A stretch of 64,000 nucleotides of DNA from a virus (lineage: Duplodnaviria; Heunggongvirae; Uroviricota; Caudoviricetes), in the IMG/VR virus record IMGVR_UViG_3300045988_145635, one strand, 5' to 3'. Below the pieces are notes generated by a model. It made no database searches. It was not told the origin of the DNA and was given only the letters and a program-made list of their open reading frames with translations. Positions 4,522-64,000 of the stretch are shown here, piece after piece. The position numbers were made by a program, and so were the translations under genes. Position 1 is the first letter of the stretch. Each line of letters starts with the position of its first letter.

Positions 4522-5091
4522 ATGTGCAAGAAATGCAAAGCGATAGCTGATGAACAAAACGCCTTATTCGAAGAAATGGATGCTAATGAACTGGTCAAAA
4601 TGTTAGCCATTCTTCGAGGAATAGAAGACGTTTCCATATTTGAGAGAGTGGTTACAGCACTTAATTTTGAGTCCACCTTTGAAGAGCCAACTCAGGTTGT
4701 AGCTTTAGCACATCATTTCGGTGTTCATTATCTTGCTGAAAAAGAGCGCGCTGATAAGTTGCAGGCGACTTTGGATATGGTGAGCGAGACTCAACGAACT
4801 GATGACACTAACAAGAGTGAGGCGATTATTGCCAGCAAAGATCGTGAAATTGCTGGGCTTAAATCCTCTCTAACGATGTTGATGTCTGCGTTCAATCTTA
4901 TGTCTTCTCAGGCGGGTTATAAAATGCCATCACTAAACAGCGATGATCCGATGGCCGTTCGTCAGCTTTTGGGAGCAATGGCCGACCAACTCGACGACAC
5001 AAAGAGTCGGCTTGAAGACATGATGCGTGAGTTAAGCCATCGACATAACCTCGCAACACAGCCACACAAAGCCTTTCAAAGCTCTAATTGA
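4522..5091 (+). CDS. Hypothetical protein
   Basis: 189-aa ORF preceded by operator motif A (4488-4504). Confidence 0.5.
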   Translation: MCKKCKAIADEQNALFEEMDANELVKMLAILRGIEDVSIFERVVTALNFESTFEEPTQVVALAHHFGVHYLAEKERADKLQATLDMVSETQRTDDTNKSEAIIASKDREIAGLKSSLTMLMSAFNLMSSQAGYKMPSLNSDDPMAVRQLLGAMADQLDDTKSRLEDMMRELSHRHNLATQPHKAFQSSN

Positions 5092-5146
5092 TCTGATATG
5101 GCCGCATGATCGGCCATATTGTGTTGATAAAAAACAAGGATGAAAA

Positions 5147-5428
5147 ATGGCATACGGTACAGGGATTTACAACAATAAAGGAATTAACGTTACTGGCTTC
5201 CTTACTCCTATTTTTTTTCTTGATCGATTTACTGCGTCATCAGGCTCTAAGACGTACTCCAATCCGCCACCGGGTAAATCGCTACATGCCGTGTGGTCAT
5301 TGATGCCTCTTAACAACGACAACTACATTAATTTACCTGTTCCAACAGTTACTATTAATGGAAATACGGTTAGTTGGTCAAATTTATATACGGGGCTTGG
5401 TTCTTACATATACACATACTGGGGATAA
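5147..5428 (+). CDS. Hypothetical protein (AT-rich gene)
   Basis: ORF with AAGGATG RBS; low GC relative to neighbours. Confidence 0.4.
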   Translation: MAYGTGIYNNKGINVTGFLTPIFFLDRFTASSGSKTYSNPPPGKSLHAVWSLMPLNNDNYINLPVPTVTINGNTVSWSNLYTGLGSYIYTYWG

Positions 5429-5430
5429 TT

Positions 5431-6045
5431 ATGTTCGGGATGTCAATTACTCAATCAGATGGAAGTTTGTGGATGAGTCCAGAATTTACTCCGCAAAATC
5501 TGATTAATAAAGGGACAATGTCTACATCTAAAGGTTCTGTTTTTCAAACATCAATCCCATCAAACAAATCATGCTTTTTCTTCATAAAAAGCAGTAATAA
5601 GGCGAACATGATGTTTATTCATGAGCATAGTAACGGATACAATGCTCTCAGATTGCATCAGGTAAATGGTAGCCCCGGAACAATAACAGTTTATGCTTTT
5701 TCTGATATGGTGTTACCACATTCTGGCTATGGCATTGCCATGTATAACAGCGCAGGCGCAATGGTGTATCACGGTGAGATGATGCCCCTTGATGCGAAAC
5801 TTATCACTATTTCGGACCCTCAATTTACCATAGATGTGGGGTATCCGTGTGCGGTAATGCCTGCTATGGTTGGGGTTTATAACTATAGACGAACCGATTA
5901 CGACAGACCTGTCTATGTAACTATGACCGGTGCAACTGGAAACCAAGTATATAACGGTCAATGGTATTCCGGTAATGTCACATGGGATATTAAGAAGATT
6001 TATACAAACAAAATCCTGGTTATAAATACCTCAAAGTATGATTAG
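5431..6045 (+). CDS. Hypothetical Tyr/Gly/Asn-rich protein
   Basis: ORF immediately after the previous gene; AT-rich; no motif recognised. Confidence 0.45.
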   Translation: MFGMSITQSDGSLWMSPEFTPQNLINKGTMSTSKGSVFQTSIPSNKSCFFFIKSSNKANMMFIHEHSNGYNALRLHQVNGSPGTITVYAFSDMVLPHSGYGIAMYNSAGAMVYHGEMMPLDAKLITISDPQFTIDVGYPCAVMPAMVGVYNYRRTDYDRPVYVTMTGATGNQVYNGQWYSGNVTWDIKKIYTNKILVINTSKYD

Positions 6046-6148
6046 CAAATACCTTTATTTAAAGGATTGCCTGTTAATTTCTATTTAGCACCTTTTCATT
6101 TTTGAAATAATTGCACCATTAAACAAATCTTTTCTTAATGGTGCAATT

Positions 6149-7834
6149 ATGAATACAGCTCTTTCCATCATCGACGATGCCAACTCAAACACTGCTATCG
6201 ATTATCGTCAGGAAATGAACGTCATCCACGAAATTGTGGCCGAGTGCGAGAAGGAGATCGCCTTCATGTATCAGGTTCACGACTTCGTTTATGGAGACGA
6301 ACGCCACAACATGATTAATCGCCTGCTGCAACTGAACCACCGACCAGATGAAGAACGCTCACGTTTGAATCGAGCTTGGCTGGATAAAGTCGATCTGGAA
6401 TGGGTGAAACAGAATATTTGGGCCGAGTACTGGAGGAAGGTCACGGATATGACTAACGTTCTGCTGATCATGCCAGCTTCCCGTCGCGACGAGTGGCGTG
6501 AGCAGTTTATCGAGGGTAAGCAGGAAGTCATCAAAACTGACAGAACCGGCTATCAGATGAAGGTAAAAGAGTTCGTTGGTGTACCGGAGTTCAAAGCAGA
6601 AACGGTCATACCCACGATGCTTAATTTGCTGAATGACAGGCACAAATATCTCTCTGAGCGCGTGTATGGCTTGTTTAAGGCGCTGAGTCCTGCGCACAAG
6701 ACAAATAAGACAAACGGTTTCAGCGAACGTCTGATAATCGCTGACTGCATTTCTGATTTCTGGCGGGACAGCGTTAGTGTGAACTATCGCAAAGAGGACT
6801 ATATCGACGATCTGCGTGTCTTGCTTCATTTCTTCGCGCACAAAGAATTTATTACCATCAACCGCACTGCTGAGGTGCTATCAGCTGCGTATCGGGCAAA
6901 CGACTGCCAGACCGGTGACTGGATGAACGTCGATGGAAATCTGATGCGCGTGAAGATGTTCAAGAACGGCAACGTTCACTTTGAAATACATCCTGACGTG
7001 GCCTGGAAGTTGAATGAGGTGCTGGCTTACAGTATGCCTGCTGCAATCCCCGCGCCATGTCGCACCGCGCCAAAAACACGGGCACCAAAGCAGTTCGGGT
7101 TAATCCAGAAGACGATCTCCGTGCCGGTTCGCACTGCGCTTCGTGACGGGCGATTGAGCAAAGACAAAGGCGTATGGTACTTCTCTGATTCAGCTCTCCA
7201 GAAGTCGCAGGTGGAAGAGCTTGAGCGCACACTGAGCTTCATTGGCGGCGTGCAGGAGAAAAAGCACTGGCAGTTCCCGTATGACATCGTCCATACGCTA
7301 AATACGATTGTGGCTACCGGTTTAATACCGGATACAAAATCACACCAGTTCTACCCTACCCCACGCTTGATTGCTGAGTACGTTGCCAGAGCCACTGAAT
7401 TGAAGCCTGGTGAGAAGCTGCTGGAGCCTCAAGCCGGACGTGGGGATCTTCTGGCCTATATTAACGCCGATCTGGAAGATGTTACCTGCATAGAAATCGC
7501 ACCTCTCTTCGCTGATATCCTGCGTGGAAAAGGGTATACGAACACGATTTGCTGCGACTTCATAAAGTGGTCTGAGGACAACGTAGGTTATCAGTTCGAC
7601 AAAATCGTTATGAACCCGCCGTATTCGCTTGGTCGTCATAGAGAGCACACGCTGGCTGCGCTGGGGCATCTGAAAGTCGGCGGGCGTCTTGTAGCAGTAT
7701 TGCCGGGCACTGCGCCAATACTGGACTGGATGACGATGGATAATTACGTTTATGCCAGAGGGAAGTCGTTTACCAACGAGTTTGAAGACACAGGGATCAC
7801 AGTCAGCGTATACGTTTTCAAACGCGTTAAATGA
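6149..7834 (+). CDS. DNA methyltransferase, gamma-class N6-adenine type, with ~340-aa N-terminal domain of unknown function
   Basis: C-terminal motifs in gamma order: FYPTP (motif X), LEPQAGRGDLL (motif I), IVMNPPYS (motif IV). Confidence 0.7.
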   Translation: MNTALSIIDDANSNTAIDYRQEMNVIHEIVAECEKEIAFMYQVHDFVYGDERHNMINRLLQLNHRPDEERSRLNRAWLDKVDLEWVKQNIWAEYWRKVTDMTNVLLIMPASRRDEWREQFIEGKQEVIKTDRTGYQMKVKEFVGVPEFKAETVIPTMLNLLNDRHKYLSERVYGLFKALSPAHKTNKTNGFSERLIIADCISDFWRDSVSVNYRKEDYIDDLRVLLHFFAHKEFITINRTAEVLSAAYRANDCQTGDWMNVDGNLMRVKMFKNGNVHFEIHPDVAWKLNEVLAYSMPAAIPAPCRTAPKTRAPKQFGLIQKTISVPVRTALRDGRLSKDKGVWYFSDSALQKSQVEELERTLSFIGGVQEKKHWQFPYDIVHTLNTIVATGLIPDTKSHQFYPTPRLIAEYVARATELKPGEKLLEPQAGRGDLLAYINADLEDVTCIEIAPLFADILRGKGYTNTICCDFIKWSEDNVGYQFDKIVMNPPYSLGRHREHTLAALGHLKVGGRLVAVLPGTAPILDWMTMDNYVYARGKSFTNEFEDTGITVSVYVFKRVK

Positions 7835-23616: not shown

Positions 23617-24267
23617 TTACGCTTTGAAAGCATCAGCTAGATAATTGTAGAAATCATTCTTGATAAAGCGATATTGCTGCGTACCAGCTTTCGCGCTCCC
23701 AGCTCCTTTGACTTTTTCAACAAGTCCAAGACGTTCGCAAAGATTGATCAACTGGTTGGCTTGAGTATAGCCAGCGTCCAATTTAATCTCGCACGCTTTT
23801 TTCGCTTCATTCATTAAATCGAAAACAGCGCCATTGGTGAACGTGTCGATCTCGTCGTTAATCATATCGATTAAAGCGAATACACGAGATCCTGACATAT
23901 CAGCGACGGAATAAACACATTTACCAGCTTTAATGGATTTAACCAGATAAACCAGTTTTTCCAGTGAATAACTATTAGTCATTGCATCACGGAAAAATAC
24001 TTCTGGCGCTTGTTTACTTGCTTTGATCGCATAGTAGAAAACAGAGCATAATTTTTCGTCTTCTACTGCGTTTACGACGTTGTTGATGAAGTAAGCAAGT
24101 TTAGTGGTAGCAGCTTGCATATTTGCTTTGTCTGCTTTGGTGTGCGTACCATTTTTATAATGTTCATTATATGTTTGAGTTGCCAGATCTGCTTTTTCGC
24201 GCAGCTCGTCGGATACAATGGATGCAGCTTCAATGATGGATTTTTTAGAAATGATAATGTTAGCCAT
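23617..24267 (-). CDS. Hypothetical protein
   Basis: 216-aa ORF with its own upstream AT-rich leader. Confidence 0.5.
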   Translation of the reverse strand: MANIIISKKSIIEAASIVSDELREKADLATQTYNEHYKNGTHTKADKANMQAATTKLAYFINNVVNAVEDEKLCSVFYYAIKASKQAPEVFFRDAMTNSYSLEKLVYLVKSIKAGKCVYSVADMSGSRVFALIDMINDEIDTFTNGAVFDLMNEAKKACEIKLDAGYTQANQLINLCERLGLVEKVKGAGSAKAGTQQYRFIKNDFYNYLADAFKA

Positions 24268-24548
24268 GATTTCAATCCTTAGTATAAAATTTAATTGTCG
24301 TTAGCGATTTCGCTTTCGATGAGTCCAATTATCGATATGAGAAAAAAGATTGCAAGCGTTTTTTAATTTTTTTTTGCAGGGCGAAAGTCCTAGAAATAAA
24401 TACGAGATCGTCGAAGGTGTTCCCTAAATAAATAATCGATTCCGGCTTTAGACCTTATATATTTATACGGGGTAGAATTGAAAGAGTATAAAATGAATGG
24501 CGTGTAAAATAATAACCGGACTTAGCCGGTTATTACCCTTATAGGAAT

Positions 24549-24848
24549 TTACATCTTTTTTGCATAGTTCCTGATTTCTTTTATTATATATTCCTGAAAA
24601 CGCTCCGAGTTTTCGCATTTGTCTTTTGAAGACTCATCAAGTCCCAACTTGCATCCCGCAACGATCAGTCCATCTTGATATGCAGCGCCTAAAGCCATGC
24701 TTAGGTCTAACATGCACAAATCGTAGTCTTCCGCCTTTGAACACAACTCTGTAGAGACACGTTGCACTCGTTCAATGCTATTTTCTTGAGAAAATGCGGA
24801 AGAGCTAAAAATGAAAGTTAAGAATGTGAATGCTGCTACAGTTTTCAT
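24549..24848 (-). CDS. Small secreted Cys-containing protein (signal peptide)
   Basis: MKTVAAFTFLTFIFSSSAFSQE signal-like N-terminus; 4 Cys; terminator hairpin downstream (24505-24528). Confidence 0.5.
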   Translation of the reverse strand: MKTVAAFTFLTFIFSSSAFSQENSIERVQRVSTELCSKAEDYDLCMLDLSMALGAAYQDGLIVAGCKLGLDESSKDKCENSERFQEYIIKEIRNYAKKM

Positions 24849-24864
24849 ATCAATATCCTAAAAC

Positions 24865-24916
24865 GGTAAAATTCGGTCAACCAAATCGAAGAAAACAAGA
24901 ATTTTTCTGCCGTCTT
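24865..24916 (-). repeat. Promoter/leader direct repeat, copy 1 (also carries a remnant 3' gene end)
   Basis: ~52 bp near-identical to 25231-25282. Confidence 0.6.
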
Positions 24917-24923
24917 CATACAT

Positions 24924-25220
24924 TTATCGGACTGACTCTACAGCCTTACGATTGGTGTCAAAAAGCGCATCAACGAACAGCAATGAAGAGTTGTTCAATT
25001 CACATGGTTCATAATTTTCCACCTGTTCACATAGTTGAGCGGTCTTACCTATGTTTATCCCTAGTTTTACTGCTGCTGAAAGTTGAAACATGCAAACTGG
25101 AATATTCTGAGACGTTGAGCATACGTCATGCATCAGCGACTTAATAATTGCAATATCATCCTTTGCATTGGCTGAAATTGAGTAAACTAAAAATAATGAT
25201 GTCAATAGTATCGATTTCAT
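24924..25220 (-). CDS. Small secreted Cys-containing protein (signal peptide), same architecture as 24549-24848
   Basis: MKSILLTSLFLVYSISANA signal-like N-terminus; 4-5 Cys. Confidence 0.5.
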   Translation of the reverse strand: MKSILLTSLFLVYSISANAKDDIAIIKSLMHDVCSTSQNIPVCMFQLSAAVKLGINIGKTAQLCEQVENYEPCELNNSSLLFVDALFDTNRKAVESVR

Positions 25221-25223
25221 AAC

Positions 25224-25748
25224 TCAAAAAGGTAAAATTCGTTCAACCCAATCGAAGAAAACAAGAATTTTTCTGCCGTCTTTCAACTTAAGTGTGACTA
25301 GGCAGGCATCAACGCCATCTGACGTTCCCTCAATTTCGCGGCCGTCTGCCATGTAGACCCTTATAGATTGGCCGTTTTGATAAGCCTTGCGACATATCTT
25401 AAAAAAATCACGACGTGATGGCTGGTTGTCTACATAGTCAGGGTGTATTGTTAGTCTCCCTTTGAAATCGTAATCAATGCCATCAATTACGCCTGATTCA
25501 ATTGTGCTAATGCGCTCAAGTGGGAGCCTTATACGATTTTCTTTGTCAAATGGAGTTGGACAAAGGTCAACTTTGTTACGAGATGACATGAGACCATAAA
25601 CGTACATGCAAAACACTTGGCCGTCTTCGAGAGTGACTCTTACAGGAAATTTAGCCCTCCGCCAGAAGAGCAAGGTGCGTTCAGCATGTTCGTAGTCTCG
25701 CGGCCATACTTCAGCCGGTATGCCGTAGGTGATATCTTTCGTCGTCAT
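25224..25748 (-). CDS. Hypothetical protein
   Basis: Start placed at the internal Met so the gene abuts the upstream lipoprotein gene. Confidence 0.5.
   Translation of the reverse strand: MTTKDITYGIPAEVWPRDYEHAERTLLFWRRAKFPVRVTLEDGQVFCMYVYGLMSSRNKVDLCPTPFDKENRIRLPLERISTIESGVIDGIDYDFKGRLTIHPDYVDNQPSRRDFFKICRKAYQNGQSIRVYMADGREIEGTSDGVDACLVTLKLKDGRKILVFFDWVERILPF
25231..25282 (-). repeat. Promoter/leader direct repeat, copy 2 (overlaps the 3' end of gene 25224-25748)
   Basis: ~52 bp near-identical to 24865-24916. Confidence 0.6.
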
Positions 25749-25752
25749 ATCA

Positions 25753-26172
25753 TTATAAAGTGGTTGGCAATATGTCCATTGTACCATCCCAGGTAGTGAA
25801 AACCCGATATGTTTTCGAATCGCCCTGCTTTAGCTTTATTTCTCGTTCCATCCTGGAGGGGTTAAATGCGCAAAGACCTGAACTTTCAATTGATGTCCCA
25901 ACGATCCACTCTCCTTCGTTAAGGTAGAAAGTTGCTTTTTCACCAGGTTCTAGCTTTGCAGCCGTTTCTCCATTGATGAAAATGGAAGCGTTACATGCAG
26001 AACCAACCAGCCCTTTGTCTCGAACTATTGTTAGACTAGACTCATGTGGTGTTTGATATTTAAATATTCTGCTTTGAGGTGCATCCTTTGCCTTTGAAAT
26101 AGATATAGACGAAGACGAACACCCAATTAGTGACGTGGTTAGCATTAGAATCATTAAGTTTTTTGCTTTCAT
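25753..26172 (-). CDS. Lipoprotein (candidate superinfection-exclusion type)
   Basis: Signal peptide with lipobox LIGC; function inferred only from being a prophage-encoded lipoprotein. Confidence 0.5.
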   Translation of the reverse strand: MKAKNLMILMLTTSLIGCSSSSISISKAKDAPQSRIFKYQTPHESSLTIVRDKGLVGSACNASIFINGETAAKLEPGEKATFYLNEGEWIVGTSIESSGLCAFNPSRMEREIKLKQGDSKTYRVFTTWDGTMDILPTTL

Positions 26173-26199
26173 ATTTGATTGACTATGATTAGTGAGTGG

Positions 26200-26748
26200 C
26201 TACATGCTATTCTGAGTTCTGTTGTAAATATCTTTTAAGAGGTCATCTCTTTTTATGTTTTTACAGACTTTGTCGAAACTTAATTCACCTGATGATATGC
26301 AGTTGTTGTATTTTTCGATAAAATTTTTTAATGCCAGATGATTTTTGAAAAGAAAAGAAAAACCATAGGGTGACGTGCTATCTCTTATCCATTTCCGAGC
26401 ACTGGGATAAGTGTATAAATTTGAATGCAACTCCAATTTTCCAGGGGCCACGCCATCACAGGAGTCCATAATAGCGAACATTTTTGATATATCAAAAGGA
26501 TAAAAGACTACTCCGCAATTTGTCCTGGTGCCTTCAATATCTTTCACGTATATATAGTGTTCATAACGATCTTTACGTGAAGTCTTTAACCTGTATTGTA
26601 TTAGTTTGTGCTCTTCTTTTTGAGAAGAAGTTAGGTGTCTAGGGTTTTCTAAGCAAGATTTCTGTTTATTTTTTTTATGATAAAAATCCACACAGTCCTT
26701 TATTTCCTTTGCACTTAAAAATCTCTTATCAAAAGGTAAGTGACCCAT
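26200..26748 (-). CDS. Hypothetical protein (AT-rich)
   Basis: 182-aa ORF; no motif recognised. Confidence 0.45.
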   Translation of the reverse strand: MGHLPFDKRFLSAKEIKDCVDFYHKKNKQKSCLENPRHLTSSQKEEHKLIQYRLKTSRKDRYEHYIYVKDIEGTRTNCGVVFYPFDISKMFAIMDSCDGVAPGKLELHSNLYTYPSARKWIRDSTSPYGFSFLFKNHLALKNFIEKYNNCISSGELSFDKVCKNIKRDDLLKDIYNRTQNSM

Positions 26749-26888
26749 TCATGCCTCCGGTTCTAAACATAGGTAAGCCTACAAATATCGTTCAGCCAAT
26801 CAAGATCTTTTTTCAGCCGGAGGTATATGTTTCAAAAAACGTGACGAATGTCACATGCAGGTGCTCTCATACACCTGCATGTAGACTA

Positions 26889-27455
26889 TTAATCATTCAA
26901 TAATCTATATTTTCTTTTGATTAAATCTTCACCTTTTTTGGTGAACACAAAACCAAATTGCGATTTTTTGTTCAGCCTAAGGACTCTGTTATCCAACGCA
27001 TCGGTTGATGGAATCAATGTTTGATCATCTATCCAATTTAGTAGCGTAAGAAAGTTCAGCAGCCTCAACGTTGTTGTGCGAAGCTCTTTCGATATATTTT
27101 CAATGCTGGCAATTCGTCTTTCTTTTTTCTCAGGTGGTACAGATAATTGTTCTTGAGGTTTCGTGGATAGATAATCAATTTCGTTTGCAGCATCGAATGA
27201 TATATGTGGCGTAATTTTGCTAAAAAAGCCTTTCGCTGACTCACTTGATAATAAACCAGACCTATTCATATCGTTTGTTATTCTGTACAGGAGTGGACTG
27301 TGTTTCATTTCAGGATAACGTTGATAAAAGTTAAGCAATTCAAAAGCAGCATTAGCGCCAACAAGAAAATCAGAAGGATCGCTGACTTTCCAGAAAGAAT
27401 GATTTTTCTTAGCGCCAGTGGTGTCAACAAATGATAATTCTTTTAACCAACTCAT
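26889..27455 (-). CDS. Hypothetical protein (AT-rich)
   Basis: Start at the Met with AAGGAG RBS. Confidence 0.45.
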   Translation of the reverse strand: MSWLKELSFVDTTGAKKNHSFWKVSDPSDFLVGANAAFELLNFYQRYPEMKHSPLLYRITNDMNRSGLLSSESAKGFFSKITPHISFDAANEIDYLSTKPQEQLSVPPEKKERRIASIENISKELRTTTLRLLNFLTLLNWIDDQTLIPSTDALDNRVLRLNKKSQFGFVFTKKGEDLIKRKYRLLND

Positions 27456-27520
27456 GATGTGCTCCTTTCTAACAAGTGAGCACATCATAGAATTAGTAGA
27501 TAGGGGGTAAATATGAAATG

Positions 27521-27799
27521 TTACGGCAACCTGCTCAGTATTTCCTCTAAATCTTTTTTTGTCATATTGGAGTTTTCATAGATGCGCATGATTTTCTCAC
27601 GCGTCTTAGCGGAAACCCCAACAGCAGATGTGACTTTGTCAAATTCAGCCATAGTCATCGTCTCCAGAATGGCATTGATAACTTCAGCCTTAGACATCTT
27701 AATTTTTTTCTCTTTGAGTTTTATTTGAAATTTTCCAAGTTTTTCATTGGCCTTATCAGACAATGCCACTTGGCAATAAGTTGTTTTTTTTTCGCTCAT
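27521..27799 (-). CDS. Small Lys-rich protein, translationally coupled to the helicase
   Basis: ATG 2 nt after the helicase stop. Confidence 0.45.
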   Translation of the reverse strand: MSEKKTTYCQVALSDKANEKLGKFQIKLKEKKIKMSKAEVINAILETMTMAEFDKVTSAVGVSAKTREKIMRIYENSNMTKKDLEEILSRLP

Positions 27800-27801
27800 A
27801 A

Positions 27802-29361
27802 CTAATCTCGTTTCAGAATTCCAAAATCGAATGCGCCATCAATAGGCAATACACCTTCCGCAAAGCCAGGTGTGGTGTCGATGATGTGTTTTCGCTCATA
27901 AGAGTGAGACAACAGGTATTTGTTGCTAGTGTCAATGAAATCAGTGATAAAACACACGTTTGCCTGATTCTTCTTGGCTCGTAAGCCACGACCGACACGC
28001 TGTCTCATTTCAACTTCTGCTTTCCCACCACCAGCAAGAATGACCGCACCAACGCTTGGCACATCAACACCAACATCCAGAATAGTCGAGCCTATTAAAA
28101 CATCTATTTCACCAGACGCTAAACTGTTCAGCTTTGCTTGCCTTGTCGACTGGTTCGATTCCCCATAAATGAAGTCAACTCTAAGGCCGGACTCTTTCAT
28201 CATTTCCATCAGGATTTGCCCGTGGCGTTTAAGACGAACCAGAGTCATACAATTGAGAGAATGTTGCTTATAGAGCAATGCTTCGCGAACAATGGCCTCA
28301 TTACGTCCCAAATTATACACGATCCCCAACTGATAAGCCTTTTGGTAGGCAGTGCTCATACCTACTCTAAAATTGAGGTGTTTGTTGGCAAGTTCTGCCT
28401 TGATTCTGGCCTCGTCCGGCTTGTAGGCAACTTTATGATAAAGGAAGTATGGTTTTGCCAGAATGCCTCGATCAATCAGGTACTTTTCTGTGACTTTAAT
28501 TTCAATTCGCCCGGCCACAGCCATCAGACGCATGTTGGCTTCTGTAGAATCCTTCATGAACGGCGTGGCCGTAAGCGCCAGACGATAGTCTGCGTTCACA
28601 CATAATCTGGCAATGTCATAGAAATTAGAGCCTGAAGACTCATGCGCTTCTTCCAGAATAAGCAGAGACACACTTGAAAGGAAGCGTTTCACTAGCTCCC
28701 GACGTTTGAGGTGGTAGCTCTTTTTATCTGGTGTTGCATCGCGTGGTGGTTCTTCAAGGAAACTTGCCAGAGTTTGAACTGTAGCGACGTTGATATGTCG
28801 TGATACCTGGAACTCACCCGAGCCAATGACTCCAACCTTTTGGCCCTTTAACCACGGTTCGCCATTTTCGGCGCGGTAGTCGATGGATCTCTGGAAGTTT
28901 TCGGCCATTTGAAACATCAGAACAGAGCGGGTTGTTAAAAATAATGTCATTCGACCGATACGTGCAGCTGCTTTGCAGGCAACATTAGATTTCCCGCCAC
29001 CAGTAGCGATCTGCGCAATCATCATTCCCTCTCGAACCAGTGTTTCCACAGTCTGATCCTGATACGCATAATCAGGATTGTATGGGAATGGGTTAACCGC
29101 CGGATTTGGTTTTCCAAGCGCCGGGGCTTTGTCTTTGCGGATATGAACACATTTGATGCCCGCCTTGTTCAAGTTCGCCGCTACAGGCTTGGCAAAGCCA
29201 GCAGGGAACGAGTTTTTACTCCAGTTGAACATCGTGCTTGTGCCCTTCCAGTCGCCAGTCTCGACTTCGTAGCTCAACATCTGTTGCACCAGTTGCTTTA
29301 CCTTGTCATCTGCGCCAGAAATAAGCGCATTAACTGCGTTAGATACAATCCGAACAGTCAT
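27802..29361 (-). CDS. Superfamily-2 helicase (DEAD/DEAH-box-like)
   Basis: Motif I ATGGGKS, motif II LILEEAH, motif III LTATP, arginine-finger-like QRVGRGLR. Confidence 0.7.
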   Translation of the reverse strand: MTVRIVSNAVNALISGADDKVKQLVQQMLSYEVETGDWKGTSTMFNWSKNSFPAGFAKPVAANLNKAGIKCVHIRKDKAPALGKPNPAVNPFPYNPDYAYQDQTVETLVREGMMIAQIATGGGKSNVACKAAARIGRMTLFLTTRSVLMFQMAENFQRSIDYRAENGEPWLKGQKVGVIGSGEFQVSRHINVATVQTLASFLEEPPRDATPDKKSYHLKRRELVKRFLSSVSLLILEEAHESSGSNFYDIARLCVNADYRLALTATPFMKDSTEANMRLMAVAGRIEIKVTEKYLIDRGILAKPYFLYHKVAYKPDEARIKAELANKHLNFRVGMSTAYQKAYQLGIVYNLGRNEAIVREALLYKQHSLNCMTLVRLKRHGQILMEMMKESGLRVDFIYGESNQSTRQAKLNSLASGEIDVLIGSTILDVGVDVPSVGAVILAGGGKAEVEMRQRVGRGLRAKKNQANVCFITDFIDTSNKYLLSHSYERKHIIDTTPGFAEGVLPIDGAFDFGILKRD

Positions 29362-29443
29362 AAACCTCTTTCCTTAGTGCCTTTTGTATGTTATTTGGCT
29401 ATTATAATAAGTAAGTGATTACTTAGTGGATTGTAGCAATAAA

Positions 29444-30124
29444 ATGGATGTAAAAATCACGATTTTGCAGGTTGATGTTGCCAACCTTCGCCCGAATACC
29501 TGGAACACCAATTCGGTTGGTGCGCAGAATTTTGAAAAACTGAAAGGTTCTATCGAAAAATTGGGCTTTTTTAAGCCAATTTTGGCTCGTGAACTTGAAG
29601 ATGGATTTTTTGAAATCCTCGGCGGCGAACATCGCTGGCGTGCCGCTATTGAGCAAGGAATTTCAACGGTTCCAGTGCTTTCTGTGGGCAAAATTAGCGA
29701 TGTCGTAGCTAAACAGATGTCACTGGTGGACAACGAGCGATACGGTGAAGACGACCAAATCGCATTGCAACGCTTCATTGAAGAAATTCAGTCAGAACTT
29801 GACTATCAACTGTCTGAAATCGCCCCGTATGACGACGAAATCTCGATGGTTTTAGCAAAAGAGGCGGCAATCGACCTTGAAGCACTGGAGGCGTTGTCTC
29901 GTGGTAGTGATGGGCCTGTCGATACCGACAAACGAGAGAAAACCGAACGTGTGGGGGCGGAACATCAGACCATGCGCTTCAAAGTAACTTTCGATGCGTC
30001 AGATCGTGTTGCAGAAACCATAAAAAACATCATCAAAGAGCAGGCTATTAACACCGGTAATGAAATGGAGAACGCTGGTGAGGCTCTGGTGTGGCTGGTC
30101 GACTACTACAAGGAGCGTATGTAA
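29444..30124 (+). CDS. ParB/Srx-fold (ParB-like nuclease domain) protein 1
   Basis: LRPNTWN and ILGGEHRWRAAIEQG match ParB N-domain boxes; motif B site upstream. Confidence 0.6.
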   Translation: MDVKITILQVDVANLRPNTWNTNSVGAQNFEKLKGSIEKLGFFKPILARELEDGFFEILGGEHRWRAAIEQGISTVPVLSVGKISDVVAKQMSLVDNERYGEDDQIALQRFIEEIQSELDYQLSEIAPYDDEISMVLAKEAAIDLEALEALSRGSDGPVDTDKREKTERVGAEHQTMRFKVTFDASDRVAETIKNIIKEQAINTGNEMENAGEALVWLVDYYKERM

Positions 30125-30792
30125 TGACCAAAAAGTTTGAAATCGTATATCGCGACCCGGCAGATCTTATTCCCTATGAGATGAATGCCAAAAAGCATGA
30201 TGAACAGCAGATCCGAGATCTGGCCGCAGCCATTAAAAAGCGCGGATTTGACCAGCCAATTACGGTCGATAAGAACGACGTAATTATTACTGGCCACGGC
30301 CGCCGTGAGGCTGCAATTTTTGCTGGACTTGAGCGCGTGCCGGTTATTGTTCGCGATGATCTGAGTGATGACGAGGTACGTGCAAAGCGCCTTGAAGATA
30401 ACCGACTTGCCAGCATTGATTACGATGCAATTAAGCTACAGAAAGAGCTTGAGTCGCTTGTTCTGGACGATATCGAGGTTTTCGGCTTCGAAGAGCGTGA
30501 GTTGAATGTTCTCGTTGGCAGTATGACAGAAGAAATGGACACCGACTCGCTAGTTATCGATCTTGGCGAAGAAACTAAACGACAGAAGGATGAACACACC
30601 GAGATCAGTCGTGAAGTTGCAGCGGAAGAAGTACGTGTTGTCGACGTATTGGGCTTTAAAACGCTCCCTGCTGGCTCTGCCATTGTTGTTGGTGATTTGC
30701 TTGCCCATATGGAAGAAATGACGGGAGAAAGCGGGGTAGACGCATTTGTGGCATATGCGGAGAAGATCTCTTCCGGGGAGATGGCTGCATGA
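30124..30792 (+). CDS. ParB/Srx-fold protein 2
   Basis: IITGHGRREAAIFAGLERVPVIV; TAATG coupling to the upstream gene. Confidence 0.6.
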   Translation: MTKKFEIVYRDPADLIPYEMNAKKHDEQQIRDLAAAIKKRGFDQPITVDKNDVIITGHGRREAAIFAGLERVPVIVRDDLSDDEVRAKRLEDNRLASIDYDAIKLQKELESLVLDDIEVFGFEERELNVLVGSMTEEMDTDSLVIDLGEETKRQKDEHTEISREVAAEEVRVVDVLGFKTLPAGSAIVVGDLLAHMEEMTGESGVDAFVAYAEKISSGEMAA

Positions 30793-31454
30793 GCAAATAC
30801 ATCATCAACGTATCGTTTCAGACACGCGTAAATAAAACCACGCGCACGTTGGAAATCGCTGAGTCGTTCGGGCTTGGCCTGGACGAAAAAGAGTGGACGC
30901 TTTACGACAATCTGGAGCTGGAAGTGAAGCAGGGCGATGTGGTGTACATCACCGGCCAATCCGGTTCCGGCAAATCCGTTGTGCTGCGCGAGTTGCAACG
31001 ACAGATGAAGGATGAAGGGCTGTCTGTAGCCTCCATCGATGATTTTACCTTCGATAATGAGGTTAACGTCATCGATCAGTTGGGCAAAACGACCAGCGAT
31101 GCGCTTGGGTTGTTATCTATGGCTGGTCTGAACGATGCATATCTGTTTGTTCGCAAGCCTTCTGAAATGTCAGACGGCCAGAAATATCGTCTCAAGATTG
31201 CCAAACTGATTGAGTCAGGCGCTAAAGTGTGGGCTGCTGACGAGTTCGGCGCTGTTCTCGACCGTGTAACCGCTCAGGTTGTGGCGTCTAACCTCCAGCG
31301 TGCCGCTCGAAAGGTTGGTGCGACGGTAATGGTGGCGACGACTCACGAAGACCTGAAGAACGCGCTGCGCCCGGATATGCAGATCACCAAGCACTACAAA
31401 GAACGCGTGAAGGTGGAATATCACAATGGTAGTCATGATGAGGTTCATTTATGA
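30789..31454 (+). CDS. Minimal ABC-type ATPase
   Basis: Walker A GQSGSGKS, signature-like MSDGQKYRLKIAKL, Walker B VWAADEFGAVLD, H-loop-like ATTHE; ATGA coupling. Confidence 0.6.
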   Translation: MSKYIINVSFQTRVNKTTRTLEIAESFGLGLDEKEWTLYDNLELEVKQGDVVYITGQSGSGKSVVLRELQRQMKDEGLSVASIDDFTFDNEVNVIDQLGKTTSDALGLLSMAGLNDAYLFVRKPSEMSDGQKYRLKIAKLIESGAKVWAADEFGAVLDRVTAQVVASNLQRAARKVGATVMVATTHEDLKNALRPDMQITKHYKERVKVEYHNGSHDEVHL

Positions 31455-32341
31455 CGGACATCATCATTAAACGCTACCGCCCTGAAGAGTTTCCGCGTCA
31501 TCTGGATTTTCTGGAGCGAATGACTGTCACAAAGGGAACTGTAGAGGACTGGCACGCTCTTAAGTCGCTTCACTACAAAACAGACGGCAAACCTTTCGCG
31601 CCAACTTACTATCGCTGCGAACTTGATGACCGTCTGGTGGGCGTCGTGGTTATGGCTTACCCGAAACTACTGTTGGCACCTCGCCACCGCATGTTTCCTA
31701 AGTTGAAACCAACCACTAATACCACCGTGGCTAACCAGTACTGGGGTCGGTACGTGAATAACAACTTTGCGGTGATCAGTCGCTCAGTTGTGGATACTCA
31801 GTATCGTGGCGTAGGCGTCTCTTATCGAATGATTAACCTGGTTAGCAGGATGCATGACCGGCCAATCATTGAGATCCAGTCCTCGATGAGCAAATACAAT
31901 CCCTTCGCCATGAAAGCAGGGTTTAAGTTCATCCGCCCTGAGCGACCGAAGAGCTATGAAAGTGCACTGCGTGTATTCCAGCGCCATTTCCGTTCCGACC
32001 CGGGTGATAACGAGGCGATCGTCAAAGAGTTGTTCGCAATGAGCGAGTCTCGTCGTCGCCGTGCACTGCGTGATCTGGTGGCGGACTACCACAAGAACAG
32101 TTCCCTGGCAAAAGCTGGGCGGAATCGTGGCACGACGATTCAGGACATTGCCGACAGTCTGGTGGACGAGGCCAGCATTGTGAAGCTGCTCAAGGACATT
32201 CACAACCTGAGCTTTACGTCTCCGTTGTATGGTGTGTACCGAAACCCTGACTTTGGTCGTCGACTGCCTGACACGCTGCCACTGCTGGCATTCGACAAAC
32301 AACCTTTGGATAAACCGTTAGAAATTGCTTTACCGGCATAA
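31451..32341 (+). CDS. GNAT-fold acetyltransferase-like protein with C-terminal extension
   Basis: VGVVVMAYP ... TQYRGVGVS ... NPFAMKAGFK resembles the GNAT acetyl-CoA-binding core; ATGA coupling. Confidence 0.45.
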   Translation: MTDIIIKRYRPEEFPRHLDFLERMTVTKGTVEDWHALKSLHYKTDGKPFAPTYYRCELDDRLVGVVVMAYPKLLLAPRHRMFPKLKPTTNTTVANQYWGRYVNNNFAVISRSVVDTQYRGVGVSYRMINLVSRMHDRPIIEIQSSMSKYNPFAMKAGFKFIRPERPKSYESALRVFQRHFRSDPGDNEAIVKELFAMSESRRRRALRDLVADYHKNSSLAKAGRNRGTTIQDIADSLVDEASIVKLLKDIHNLSFTSPLYGVYRNPDFGRRLPDTLPLLAFDKQPLDKPLEIALPA

Positions 32342-32350
32342 GGATTTGCC

Positions 32351-32617
32351 ATGACGTTAACCGATAAACAAAAGGACATCATCAAAACGCTCAATCTCGG
32401 TTATGAGCGAGGTCATTTACTTGATCTGGACGAATTGCTTGAAGTTTTGCCGTACAAGACAACCAAGCAAAGTATCCAGTTCTCAATTCGCGCTCTGATA
32501 AAAAAGGGGCTGGTGGAGAAAGGGCATACGCGCCAACGCAGTGACAATCGCTATCACCGCCGGACTCTTGGGTTAACCACTTTAGGTCGAGCCAAAGCGA
32601 AGTTACTGGTGATGTAA
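32351..32617 (+). CDS. Small winged-helix-like DNA-binding protein
   Basis: 88 aa, basic C-terminus; last gene before the large palindrome. Confidence 0.4.
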   Translation: MTLTDKQKDIIKTLNLGYERGHLLDLDELLEVLPYKTTKQSIQFSIRALIKKGLVEKGHTRQRSDNRYHRRTLGLTTLGRAKAKLLVM

Positions 32618-32621
32618 TCGG

Positions 32622-32719
32622 TCTGGGAGCTTATTTAAAGACCTGCTTCTGTATATATAAATAATAAGTAACTTATTAAATATATACGGAAGCAGGCTTA
32701 GTAAGACATGCCCAGACCT
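32622..32719. repeat. Long palindrome, copy B (core 32642-32696) with outer inverted repeat GGTCTGGG / CCCAGACC
   Basis: cctgcttctgtatatataaataataagtaacttattaaatatatacggaagcagg; lies just upstream of the terminase genes. Confidence 0.65.
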
Positions 32720-61986: not shown

Positions 61987-62655
61987 ATGACCAAGATCTT
62001 TGTGGTTGGCGGCACAAAGGGCGGGCCTGGCAAATCCACCGTTGCCCAGCAAATTGCCGTTTGCCTTAAAGTCAAAAAGAAGAAGAAGGTTTATATCACT
62101 GATATAGATATTCAGCGCACGACAACAAGCTGGTGTGAAGACCGTCGACAGAACGAAGACCTTGAGCTGATTCCTTTTGCATACGTTCAGGATGACATCA
62201 TTAAGCACCTAAAATCGCTTCAGGGTAGAGCTGAGTATGTAGTGGTAGATGCTGGTGGCTTTGACTCCGAAATTCAGCGACAAGCGATGCTGATGGCCGA
62301 CGTTATCATTATCCCGCTTCGTCCTAAGCGTCGTGATTTGAAATCTCTGCGTGACATTGATCCTATTATCGACAATGTTCGTAATGTAAACGATAAAGTG
62401 AAGGTCCGCGCGGTCATGAACCAGTGCCCGGCTTTGCCATCACAAGTGTCTCGCATTCTGGCGGCTAAAGAGATTGTTGAGACGTTTGGCATCGAGTCTG
62501 CGCCAGTCAATCTATATAACCGCAACGTCTATGATGATGCGGAAGAGTCTGGTCGTTCTATCTTTGAAATGACCGGTAGCGAGCGCGACAAAAAGGCGGA
62601 AGCCGAGTTTGAAGAATTTGTAGATTATCTGTTGAGTCTGGAGGAAAAAGAATAA
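61987..62655 (+). CDS. ParA/ParF-type partition ATPase
   Basis: Deviant Walker A GGTKGGPGKST; 222 aa. Confidence 0.8.
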   Translation: MTKIFVVGGTKGGPGKSTVAQQIAVCLKVKKKKKVYITDIDIQRTTTSWCEDRRQNEDLELIPFAYVQDDIIKHLKSLQGRAEYVVVDAGGFDSEIQRQAMLMADVIIIPLRPKRRDLKSLRDIDPIIDNVRNVNDKVKVRAVMNQCPALPSQVSRILAAKEIVETFGIESAPVNLYNRNVYDDAEESGRSIFEMTGSERDKKAEAEFEEFVDYLLSLEEKE

Positions 62656-63014
62656 TGTCCATGAAAATGGGTGACCTAGCAAAGCGCAAAGAGCCTGATG
62701 CACCGGCTAAGAACACAACTCCTTTGCGCCAACCAGTCAGACCACAGGGACGCCCGACTCGTGGCAAAGAGAAAATTAAAAGCCGCACAATGTCACTGGA
62801 GGACGAATACTTCGAACTGCTGGAGATGATGAAGTTCATCCCTCGCTTCGAGAAGTTCACTCGTTCTGACGTGATTCGTGCTGCTATTTTCCATCTTGCG
62901 GAGAAGACACCGCAGGAAATCGAGGACATCGTGAAACTTAACGAGGCGATCACCGCTGCCGATGTCACGATGCGTACCGATGAAATCAAACGAGAGTTGA
63001 TGAAGAAAGGTTAA
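62655..63014 (+). CDS. Small RHH-type centromere-binding protein (ParG-like)
   Basis: TAATG-coupled to the ParA-like gene; basic N-terminal tail plus C-terminal beta-alpha-alpha pattern. Confidence 0.55.
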   Translation: MSMKMGDLAKRKEPDAPAKNTTPLRQPVRPQGRPTRGKEKIKSRTMSLEDEYFELLEMMKFIPRFEKFTRSDVIRAAIFHLAEKTPQEIEDIVKLNEAITAADVTMRTDEIKRELMKKG

Positions 63015-63944: not shown

Positions 63945-64000
63945 GCCTGCTTCTGTATATATAAATAATAAGTAACTTATTAAATATATACGGAAGCAGG
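63945..64000. repeat. Long palindrome, copy C (truncated by window end)
   Basis: Identical to copy B over the visible length; left flank TTCTGGGCGTCT resembles copy A flank TTCTGGCGTCT. Confidence 0.6.

Follow-up and report, generated by a model that had tools for sequence, protein, structure and literature searches.

A probable UvsW-type helicase and its small lysine-rich partner in an SSU5-like phage-plasmid

The window analysed here is a stretch of 64,000 nucleotides from a tailed virus (Caudoviricetes; IMG/VR record IMGVR_UViG_3300045988_145635). Between positions 27,521 and 29,361 its minus strand encodes a superfamily 2 (SF2) helicase of 519 amino acids (aa) followed by a lysine-rich protein of 92 aa. 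We consider it probable, at roughly 80%, that the helicase is a UvsW-type enzyme remodelling branched DNA in an SSU5-like phage-plasmid, with the small protein as its ribbon-helix-helix (RHH)-like partner. The sequence assigns the window to such an element: positions 26800-29500 share 98% identity with Escherichia phage Cyrano, which is the phage-plasmid pLF82 of Escherichia coli LF82, and the gene pair is 79% identical to that of Salmonella phage SSU5. The orthologous genes are CYRAN_118/117 in Cyrano and SSU5_124/123 in SSU5. A search of a plasmid collection recovered the pair in 396 plasmid records, mostly non-mobilizable and, among the best matches listed, of about 106-116 kb. Both genes are real, because they match PHROG 16 (2.4e-93) and PHROG 1466 (1.2e-45, function unknown), respectively, are retained in these plasmid records and are transcribed in the 98%-identical relative.

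Family placement of the helicase

The helicase gene (27802-29361, minus strand) is preceded by a strong Shine-Dalgarno sequence, AAGGAAAGAGG, and opens the minus-strand block 23617-29361. Its product carries motif I (GGGKS, residues 121-125, positions 28987-29001), motif II (EEAH, residues 237-240, 28642-28653), motif III (TATP, residues 264-267, 28561-28572) and motif VI (QRVGRGLR, residues 454-461, 27979-28002), all of which are invariant in an alignment of 40 relatives. The first three had been recognised in the original prediction, made from the nucleotide sequence without database searches, and motif VI can be added to them. Pfam matches to DEAD (1.5e-14) and ResIII (3.9e-14) extend over residues 99-270 and a match to Helicase_C (3.6e-13) over residues 364-462, leaving about 95-100 aa at the N-terminus. 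The AlphaFold2 (AF2) model has a predicted local distance difference test (pLDDT) score of 90.7, and the protein can be divided into a UvsW_N-like domain (approximately residues 1-75), a linker (76-95) and two RecA-like lobes.

The N-terminal extension had been described as about 110 aa of unknown function. The extension exists, at the slightly shorter length given above, and the sequence comparisons identify it as a UvsW_N domain plus linker. This assignment is based on the profile alignment to T4 UvsW and on the UvsW_N matches found in relatives. The domain (residues 1-75, positions 29137-29361, minus strand) is modelled by AF2 as strand-strand-helix-strand-strand-strand-helix-strand and bears a conserved signature, W38-x-G40 followed by F52-P-A-G-F, in which W38, G40, F52 and G55 are invariant in the 40 relatives. 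When the 40-sequence family profile was compared with T4 UvsW using hhalign, a probability of 99.6 and an E-value of 1.7e-23 were obtained over 422 columns. Starting from residue 15 in each of the two proteins, the alignment takes in the N-terminal domain, which is matched to T4 UvsW residues 15-90 and includes the signature in the form W-D/K-G...FP-x-G. In addition, 29 of the 40 family members match UvsW_N in Pfam (PF21241), and relatives of about 48% identity exceed the cutoff of 25.3 bits with scores of 34.2, 29.1 and 27.9 bits. Matches to XPB are limited to the motor region (residues 231-470 and, weakly, 99-174), and the score for NCBIfam repair_heli_XPB is 49.8 bits against a cutoff of 610. 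We conclude that the helicase belongs to the UvsW family, sister to XPB. In the public record of Cyrano the orthologue already carries the label 'UvsW helicase'.

Some matches point to defence or restriction helicases (PADLOC PbeA, 1e-22; NCBIfam dnd_restrict_1, 3.5e-16; Pfam ResIII, 3.9e-14) and, since AT-rich variable genes lie downstream, the protein could be read as cargo of a variable island, either a PbeA/Dnd-associated restriction helicase or the R subunit of a type I/III system. We regard this as very improbable. The PbeA match is limited to the helicase core (profile positions 253-635 of 672), TIGR04095 reaches 59 bits where its cutoff is 600, Pfam revealed no nuclease domain and the N-terminus corresponds to UvsW_N. 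Moreover, the gene belongs to the conserved backbone, being found in the 396 plasmid records and in distant phages, and does not behave as variable cargo.

A replicative function was also considered, as the 64-kb window lacks genes for a primase, a polymerase or a further helicase. The absence noted for primase and polymerase in the original prediction is correct for the window itself. It is nevertheless a window-edge effect, because in the near-identical plasmid pPK8276-110kb, whose helicase pair is 99.2% identical, the replication genes (dnaE, ligase, primase and a DnaB-like helicase) start some 2 kb past the ParA gene located near the window's end. Similarly, Cyrano encodes a gp32-like single-stranded DNA-binding protein (Pfam, 1.7e-66), an intein-containing RecA, a 5'-3' exonuclease, a DnaB_C helicase and a Toprim primase, all checked with Pfam, together with UvsY, SbcCD, RuvC and the Pol III alpha subunit as annotated by its authors. 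In the near-identical replicons the DnaB-like helicase adjoins the DnaG-type primase. The window helicase gives no match to Pfam DnaB_C and is an SF2 protein of UvsW type, not a hexameric superfamily 4 (SF4) enzyme. Replication forks would be served by the DnaB-like helicase, a protein in its own right, and by the primase, both encoded a short way past the window, and we find it hardly credible that the protein studied here is the replicative helicase of the element. The Cyrano RecA (5065-7404, outside the window) is 779 aa long and its intein contains a LAGLIDADG homing endonuclease (Pfam Intein_splicing, LAGLIDADG_3 and RecA).

Judged by its profiles, the helicase is therefore of the recombination or fork-remodelling type and neither a replicative helicase nor a defence gene, so that its role is no longer as open as originally stated. 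It would be a monomeric SF2 DNA translocase in which a UvsW_N domain is joined to two RecA-like motor lobes. The UvsW_N domain of T4 UvsW recognises branched DNA, and T4 UvsW is known for branch migration, fork regression, strand annealing and the unwinding of R- and D-loops. By homology to T4 UvsW and T5 D10, the window helicase would remodel D-loops, R-loops, stalled forks and Holliday junctions. Acting with T4-like recombination genes, it would serve recombination-dependent replication, fork restart and the debranching of concatemers. A UvsW-type helicase fits the T4-type recombination set gp32/RecA/UvsY, which lies outside the window in the 98%-identical Cyrano replicon and in which UvsY is known by the authors' annotation only.

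The architecture of UvsW_N plus SF2 core is alike in T4 UvsW (PDB 1RIF, 2OCA) and in the window helicase. Motif II is DECH in the former and EEAH in the latter, which also has an extra helical insertion at about residues 203-232 and, unlike T4 UvsW, belongs to a temperate phage-plasmid and is transcribed in lysogeny. The resemblance to archaeal and eukaryotic XPB/Rad25 (PDB 5TNU, 6P4F, 2FWR, 5OQJ) is confined to the motor lobes: the N-terminus is UvsW_N where XPB has a damage-recognition domain, and there is no Bax1-like nuclease partner. T5 D10, a phage homologue of UvsW, migrates three- and four-way junctions, with an activity that depends on substrate sequence (Wong et al. 2016, PMC5180179); the same junction migration is predicted here for the window helicase. 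A literature search, from which one 2026 preprint was left outside, found no functional treatment of the helicase or of CYRAN_117.

The small protein downstream of the helicase

The gene of the 92-aa protein (27521-27799, minus strand) starts 2 nt after the helicase stop codon, as originally described: the TAG at 27804-27802 is followed by TT and by the ATG at 27799. The small gene has no Shine-Dalgarno sequence of its own, and this, together with the 2-nt gap, implies translational coupling to the helicase; the two genes would also be co-transcribed. The lysine-rich character of the protein was likewise borne out (16 Lys in 92 residues, pI 9.5), the basic, RHH-looking residues forming the N-terminal half and the C-terminal half being helical. 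The family is small, with only 26 representatives retrieved by an exhaustive profile search of 1.8 billion representative proteins, and it is found directly 3' of the helicase in every context that could be inspected. Small open reading frames (ORFs) of 87-116 aa occupy this position in SSU5, Moellerella, a Vreelandella prophage, Xenorhabdus, a Klebsiella-type contig and four metagenomic contigs, in one of which helicase and small ORF overlap by 4 nt.

The AF2 model of the 92-aa protein (pLDDT 81) comprises an extended segment (residues 1-14), helices at 15-30 and 37-47 and two longer helices. S36, nearly invariant in the family, falls between the first two helices, where an RHH domain would have a short turn with an S/T cap. 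The model is that of a monomer, in which the strand of an RHH protein, possible in the dimer only, would not be formed. The Vreelandella positional orthologue has ParG as its best PDB match, weak (E 0.014) and spanning the RHH region, and the family profile has TTHA0139 as its best match, over residues 1-51 (E 0.23, not significant). None of these leads is significant singly. Together they are weak but convergent, and from the model and these matches we rate an RHH fold as probable. The small protein would most likely be a dimeric RHH DNA-binding protein with a helical C-terminal extension. It might bind DNA in support of the helicase or, alternatively, regulate the divergent promoter.

Comparison with known RHH proteins carrying extra helices (ParG, 1P94; F-like TraM, 3ON0; PcfF, 6QEQ; AcaB, 6N8B) gave no statistically secure match, and a PDB sequence search with the 92-aa protein returned nothing significant. 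No partition, relaxosome or conjugation genes are associated with the small gene, whose link to the helicase is positional only. In T4, a small ORF, UvsW.1 (76 aa), also lies directly downstream of the UvsW-type helicase in the same orientation, and its product has been proposed to be a DNA-binding partner of UvsW (Kerr et al. 2007 as cited in PMC5180179; Iyer et al. 2021, PMC7824862). The 92-aa protein is basic with an RHH-looking N-terminus, whereas UvsW.1 is an acidic protein made up of helices only. Homology between the two was rejected (hhalign probability 0.1), and UvsW.1 was absent among the PDB matches of the 92-aa protein up to an E-value of 10. To judge from these comparisons, the small protein would at most be a positional analogue of UvsW.1.

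Expression in the plasmid state and alternative roles

Transcript levels were taken from one relative, Cyrano, as normalised reads in the LF82 lysogen (Misson et al. 2023, PMC9928086, Table 1 and S1 Table). CYRAN_117, the orthologue of the 92-aa gene, reaches 114 reads, 12 times the prophage background, and the helicase 46 reads, so that RNA of the small gene is about 2.5-fold more abundant than that of the helicase; RepA has 133 reads. The replisome and recombination set remains at background, with about 7-21 reads: 21 for the DnaB-like helicase and approximately 9-11 for primase, Pol III alpha, UvsY, gp32 and RecA. The divergent ParB-like genes have 5-9 reads (5 for the divergent ParB-like gene itself). 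Across four growth or macrophage conditions the log2 values are 7.2-8.4 for the helicase and 7.4-8.3 for RepA, and the helicase and the small gene co-vary across five conditions (PMC9928086). Since the pair co-varies and is expressed while the replisome and recombination genes are at background, it constitutes a discrete transcription unit, active in the plasmid state and uncoupled from its presumed lytic partners.

The 3' limit of this unit can also be proposed. CYRAN_116, downstream of CYRAN_117, has 9 reads, a fall of about 12-fold from 114 (PMC9928086). In the window, a strong RNA hairpin lies directly 3' of the small gene (27446-27497, minus strand; -28.5 kcal/mol, z -5.4, none of 200 shuffles as good), in a position that fits this drop, and it is likely the 3' boundary of the two-gene transcript. 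Within the hairpin lie the Shine-Dalgarno sequence and the probable start codon (ATG, 27455) of the ORF that follows, which encodes 199 aa (PHROG 13473, function unknown, with the match starting at residue 12), and it may therefore act both as transcript 3' end and as translational block on that ORF. The AT-rich genes downstream of the pair differ between Cyrano, SSU5 and the window, only the helicase and the 92-aa gene being conserved together. The helicase does head the minus-strand island, in agreement with the original prediction; because the downstream genes differ and the RNA falls after the small gene, the island itself cannot be taken as one unit. The AT-rich variable stretch (GC 0.37-0.40) contains, at 25224-25787 on the minus strand, a full-length homologue of FljA, the phase-1 flagellin repressor (Pfam Flag1_repress, 4.2e-80), which is also found next to the pair in several relatives and may be a moron affecting host flagellin expression.

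Several observations weigh against a UvsW-type helicase acting with an RHH-like partner. The window helicase is itself below the Pfam threshold for UvsW_N, about 9 consensus residues of the domain being absent, and its identity to T4 UvsW is about 23%. In plain sequence searches its best solved relatives are archaeal XPB-II proteins (5e-13, versus 2.7e-8 for UvsW), both sets of matches being restricted to the motor lobes. As to the small protein, hhalign gave a probability of only 20.6 against ParG and of 1.5 against CopG (with an approximate CopG query sequence), no RHH family was matched in Pfam, NCBIfam or PADLOC, and Foldseek against the PDB returned nothing with an E-value below 1. Pseudomonas phage hairong encodes the helicase (40% identity) with no small gene annotated after it. 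Finally, in the lysogen the helicase is expressed without its presumed recombination partners, so that a purely lytic recombination role leaves the regulation of the helicase unexplained.

The last point bears on a possible reading, which we hold tentatively, in which the pair is mainly a maintenance module of the plasmid state and the helicase clears R- and D-loops on the plasmid. T4 UvsW unwinds R-loops, an established activity, and suppresses R-loop-primed firing at oriF and oriG. The window helicase might similarly suppress R-loop-primed firing of a lytic origin, or rescue RepA-driven forks, with the RHH protein setting helicase expression or directing the helicase to specific sites. The levels of the helicase and the small gene, near that of RepA while replisome, UvsY, gp32 and RecA are at background, favour this reading; set against it are the origin of the transcript levels in a single relative, the position of the helicase just under the authors' 5-fold cutoff and the retention of the helicase in Pseudomonas phage hairong. 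It is compatible with the UvsW-type assignment and not exclusive of it. As the pair is transcribed alongside plasmid-maintenance genes in the lysogen, the UvsW-type helicase probably also works in plasmid-state replication. We give little credence to a more specific version, in which the pair would be a dedicated two-protein module kept on in lysogeny and the small protein would load or restrain the helicase at specific DNA sites, R- and D-loops being dissolved at the lytic origin so that only RepA-driven replication takes place until induction. If true, it would mean a sequence-directed use of a branch-migration helicase in the switch between plasmid and lytic replication of SSU5-like phage-plasmids.

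Divergent from the helicase, a conserved plus-strand block (29426-32617) encodes two ParB_N proteins, an ABC ATPase, a 296-aa protein and an 88-aa protein, and lies directly upstream of the terminase genes TerS/TerL. The block is syntenic from E. coli to the Pseudomonas phage and silent in the lysogen. The 296-aa protein has no Pfam match and is annotated in Cyrano as the acetyltransferase-like part of COG2401/MK0520. The helicase is found head-to-head with the ParB_N/ParB_N/ABC ATPase/terminase block in relatives in which its own identity is 40-60%, namely Moellerella, the Vreelandella prophage, metagenomic contigs of about 100 kb, Xenorhabdus and Pseudomonas phage hairong. That this arrangement is kept at such low identity could indicate that the helicase works with the block, from its ParB_N genes to TerS and TerL, in packaging, genome-end processing, DNA modification or anti-defence, and not in general recombination. 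We consider such a partnership unlikely: these elements share one collinear backbone, so that synteny may only reflect common descent, no block protein is a known partner of UvsW-type helicases, and regulation in the lysogen is opposite (46 reads for the helicase, 5-9 for the ParB-like genes). Given this opposite regulation, the synteny may express a shared backbone rather than a shared function.

Control region, neighbouring elements and significance

The helicase ATG and the ParB-like ATG are separated by a divergent control region of 82 bp (29362-29443). A sigma-70 promoter scan of this region called no promoter; reading by eye, we noted a TATAAT on the minus strand at 29401-29406. An inverted-repeat scan and an alignment with SSU5, Moellerella and Vreelandella identified within the region a palindrome, TAAGTAA-N4-TTACTTA, at 29408-29425. 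The corresponding motif, TArGTAA-N4-TTACyTA, is dispersed: 15 sites with at most 2 mismatches are present in the window, versus about 1.0 expected, and 23 in Cyrano. Sites of 18 bp lie at 640, 2856, 7835, 29408, 34700, 36207, 38123, 41698, 48209, 55129 and 59338, and nearly all sites are at gene boundaries, often overlapping a stop codon or situated 2-13 nt before the next start. The Vreelandella prophage has 3 perfect copies in 13.6 kb, two of them in the equivalent TerL/portal and helicase/ParB intergenic regions. The sites could serve as dispersed operators, as promoter elements or, in RNA, as hairpins. We also considered the palindrome at 29408-29425 as the operator of the small protein. 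Because the motif is genome-wide, and because SSU5 and two metagenomic relatives have the small gene but lack the motif in the corresponding intergenic region, no specific link is supported and the palindrome was not assigned to the small protein.

A second, longer palindrome, near-perfect and of 55 bp (CCTGCTTCTGTATATATAAATAATAAGTAACTTATTAAATATATACGGAAGCAGG), occurs in two identical copies 31.3 kb apart, at 32642-32696 and 63946-64000 (-17.4 kcal/mol as DNA, z -7.7). The first copy lies between the 88-aa gene and TerS, where the linear Cyrano record is cut, and the second is at the window's end, 3' of the ParA operon. Possible functions are those of a centromere, of a terminator or of a site connected with the ends of the genome. 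The ParA operon (61987-63014, plus strand) encodes a ParA-type ATPase of 222 aa and then a 119-aa ORF, annotated as a RelE/ParE toxin in Cyrano and located just upstream of the second palindrome copy; judged by its position, this ORF could instead encode the protein that binds the centromere in a type Ib partition system.

The helicase appears to be an ordinary UvsW-type enzyme, already so annotated in one public record, and the remaining interest lies in the uncharacterised partner family and in the plasmid-state expression. The analysis shows the ORFs, the motifs, the family membership, the fold, the synteny and, for a relative, the transcription of the pair, from which the enzymatic activities, the RHH fold, any contact between helicase and partner and the biological role are inferred. 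SSU5-like phage-plasmids are common in E. coli, Klebsiella, Salmonella, Enterobacter and Yersinia, and the UvsW-type assignment would complete the T4-like recombination toolkit of these elements. It is of mild interest that a tiny uncharacterised family, probably DNA-binding, is strictly tethered to a UvsW-type helicase. Transcription of the pair in the plasmid state, with the replisome and recombinase genes off, hints that the two genes contribute to DNA maintenance in that state. UvsW-type helicases have recently been shown to trigger retron defence (PMC12746101) and, speculatively, a UvsW-type helicase expressed constitutively from a resident plasmid could bear on its compatibility with host defences.

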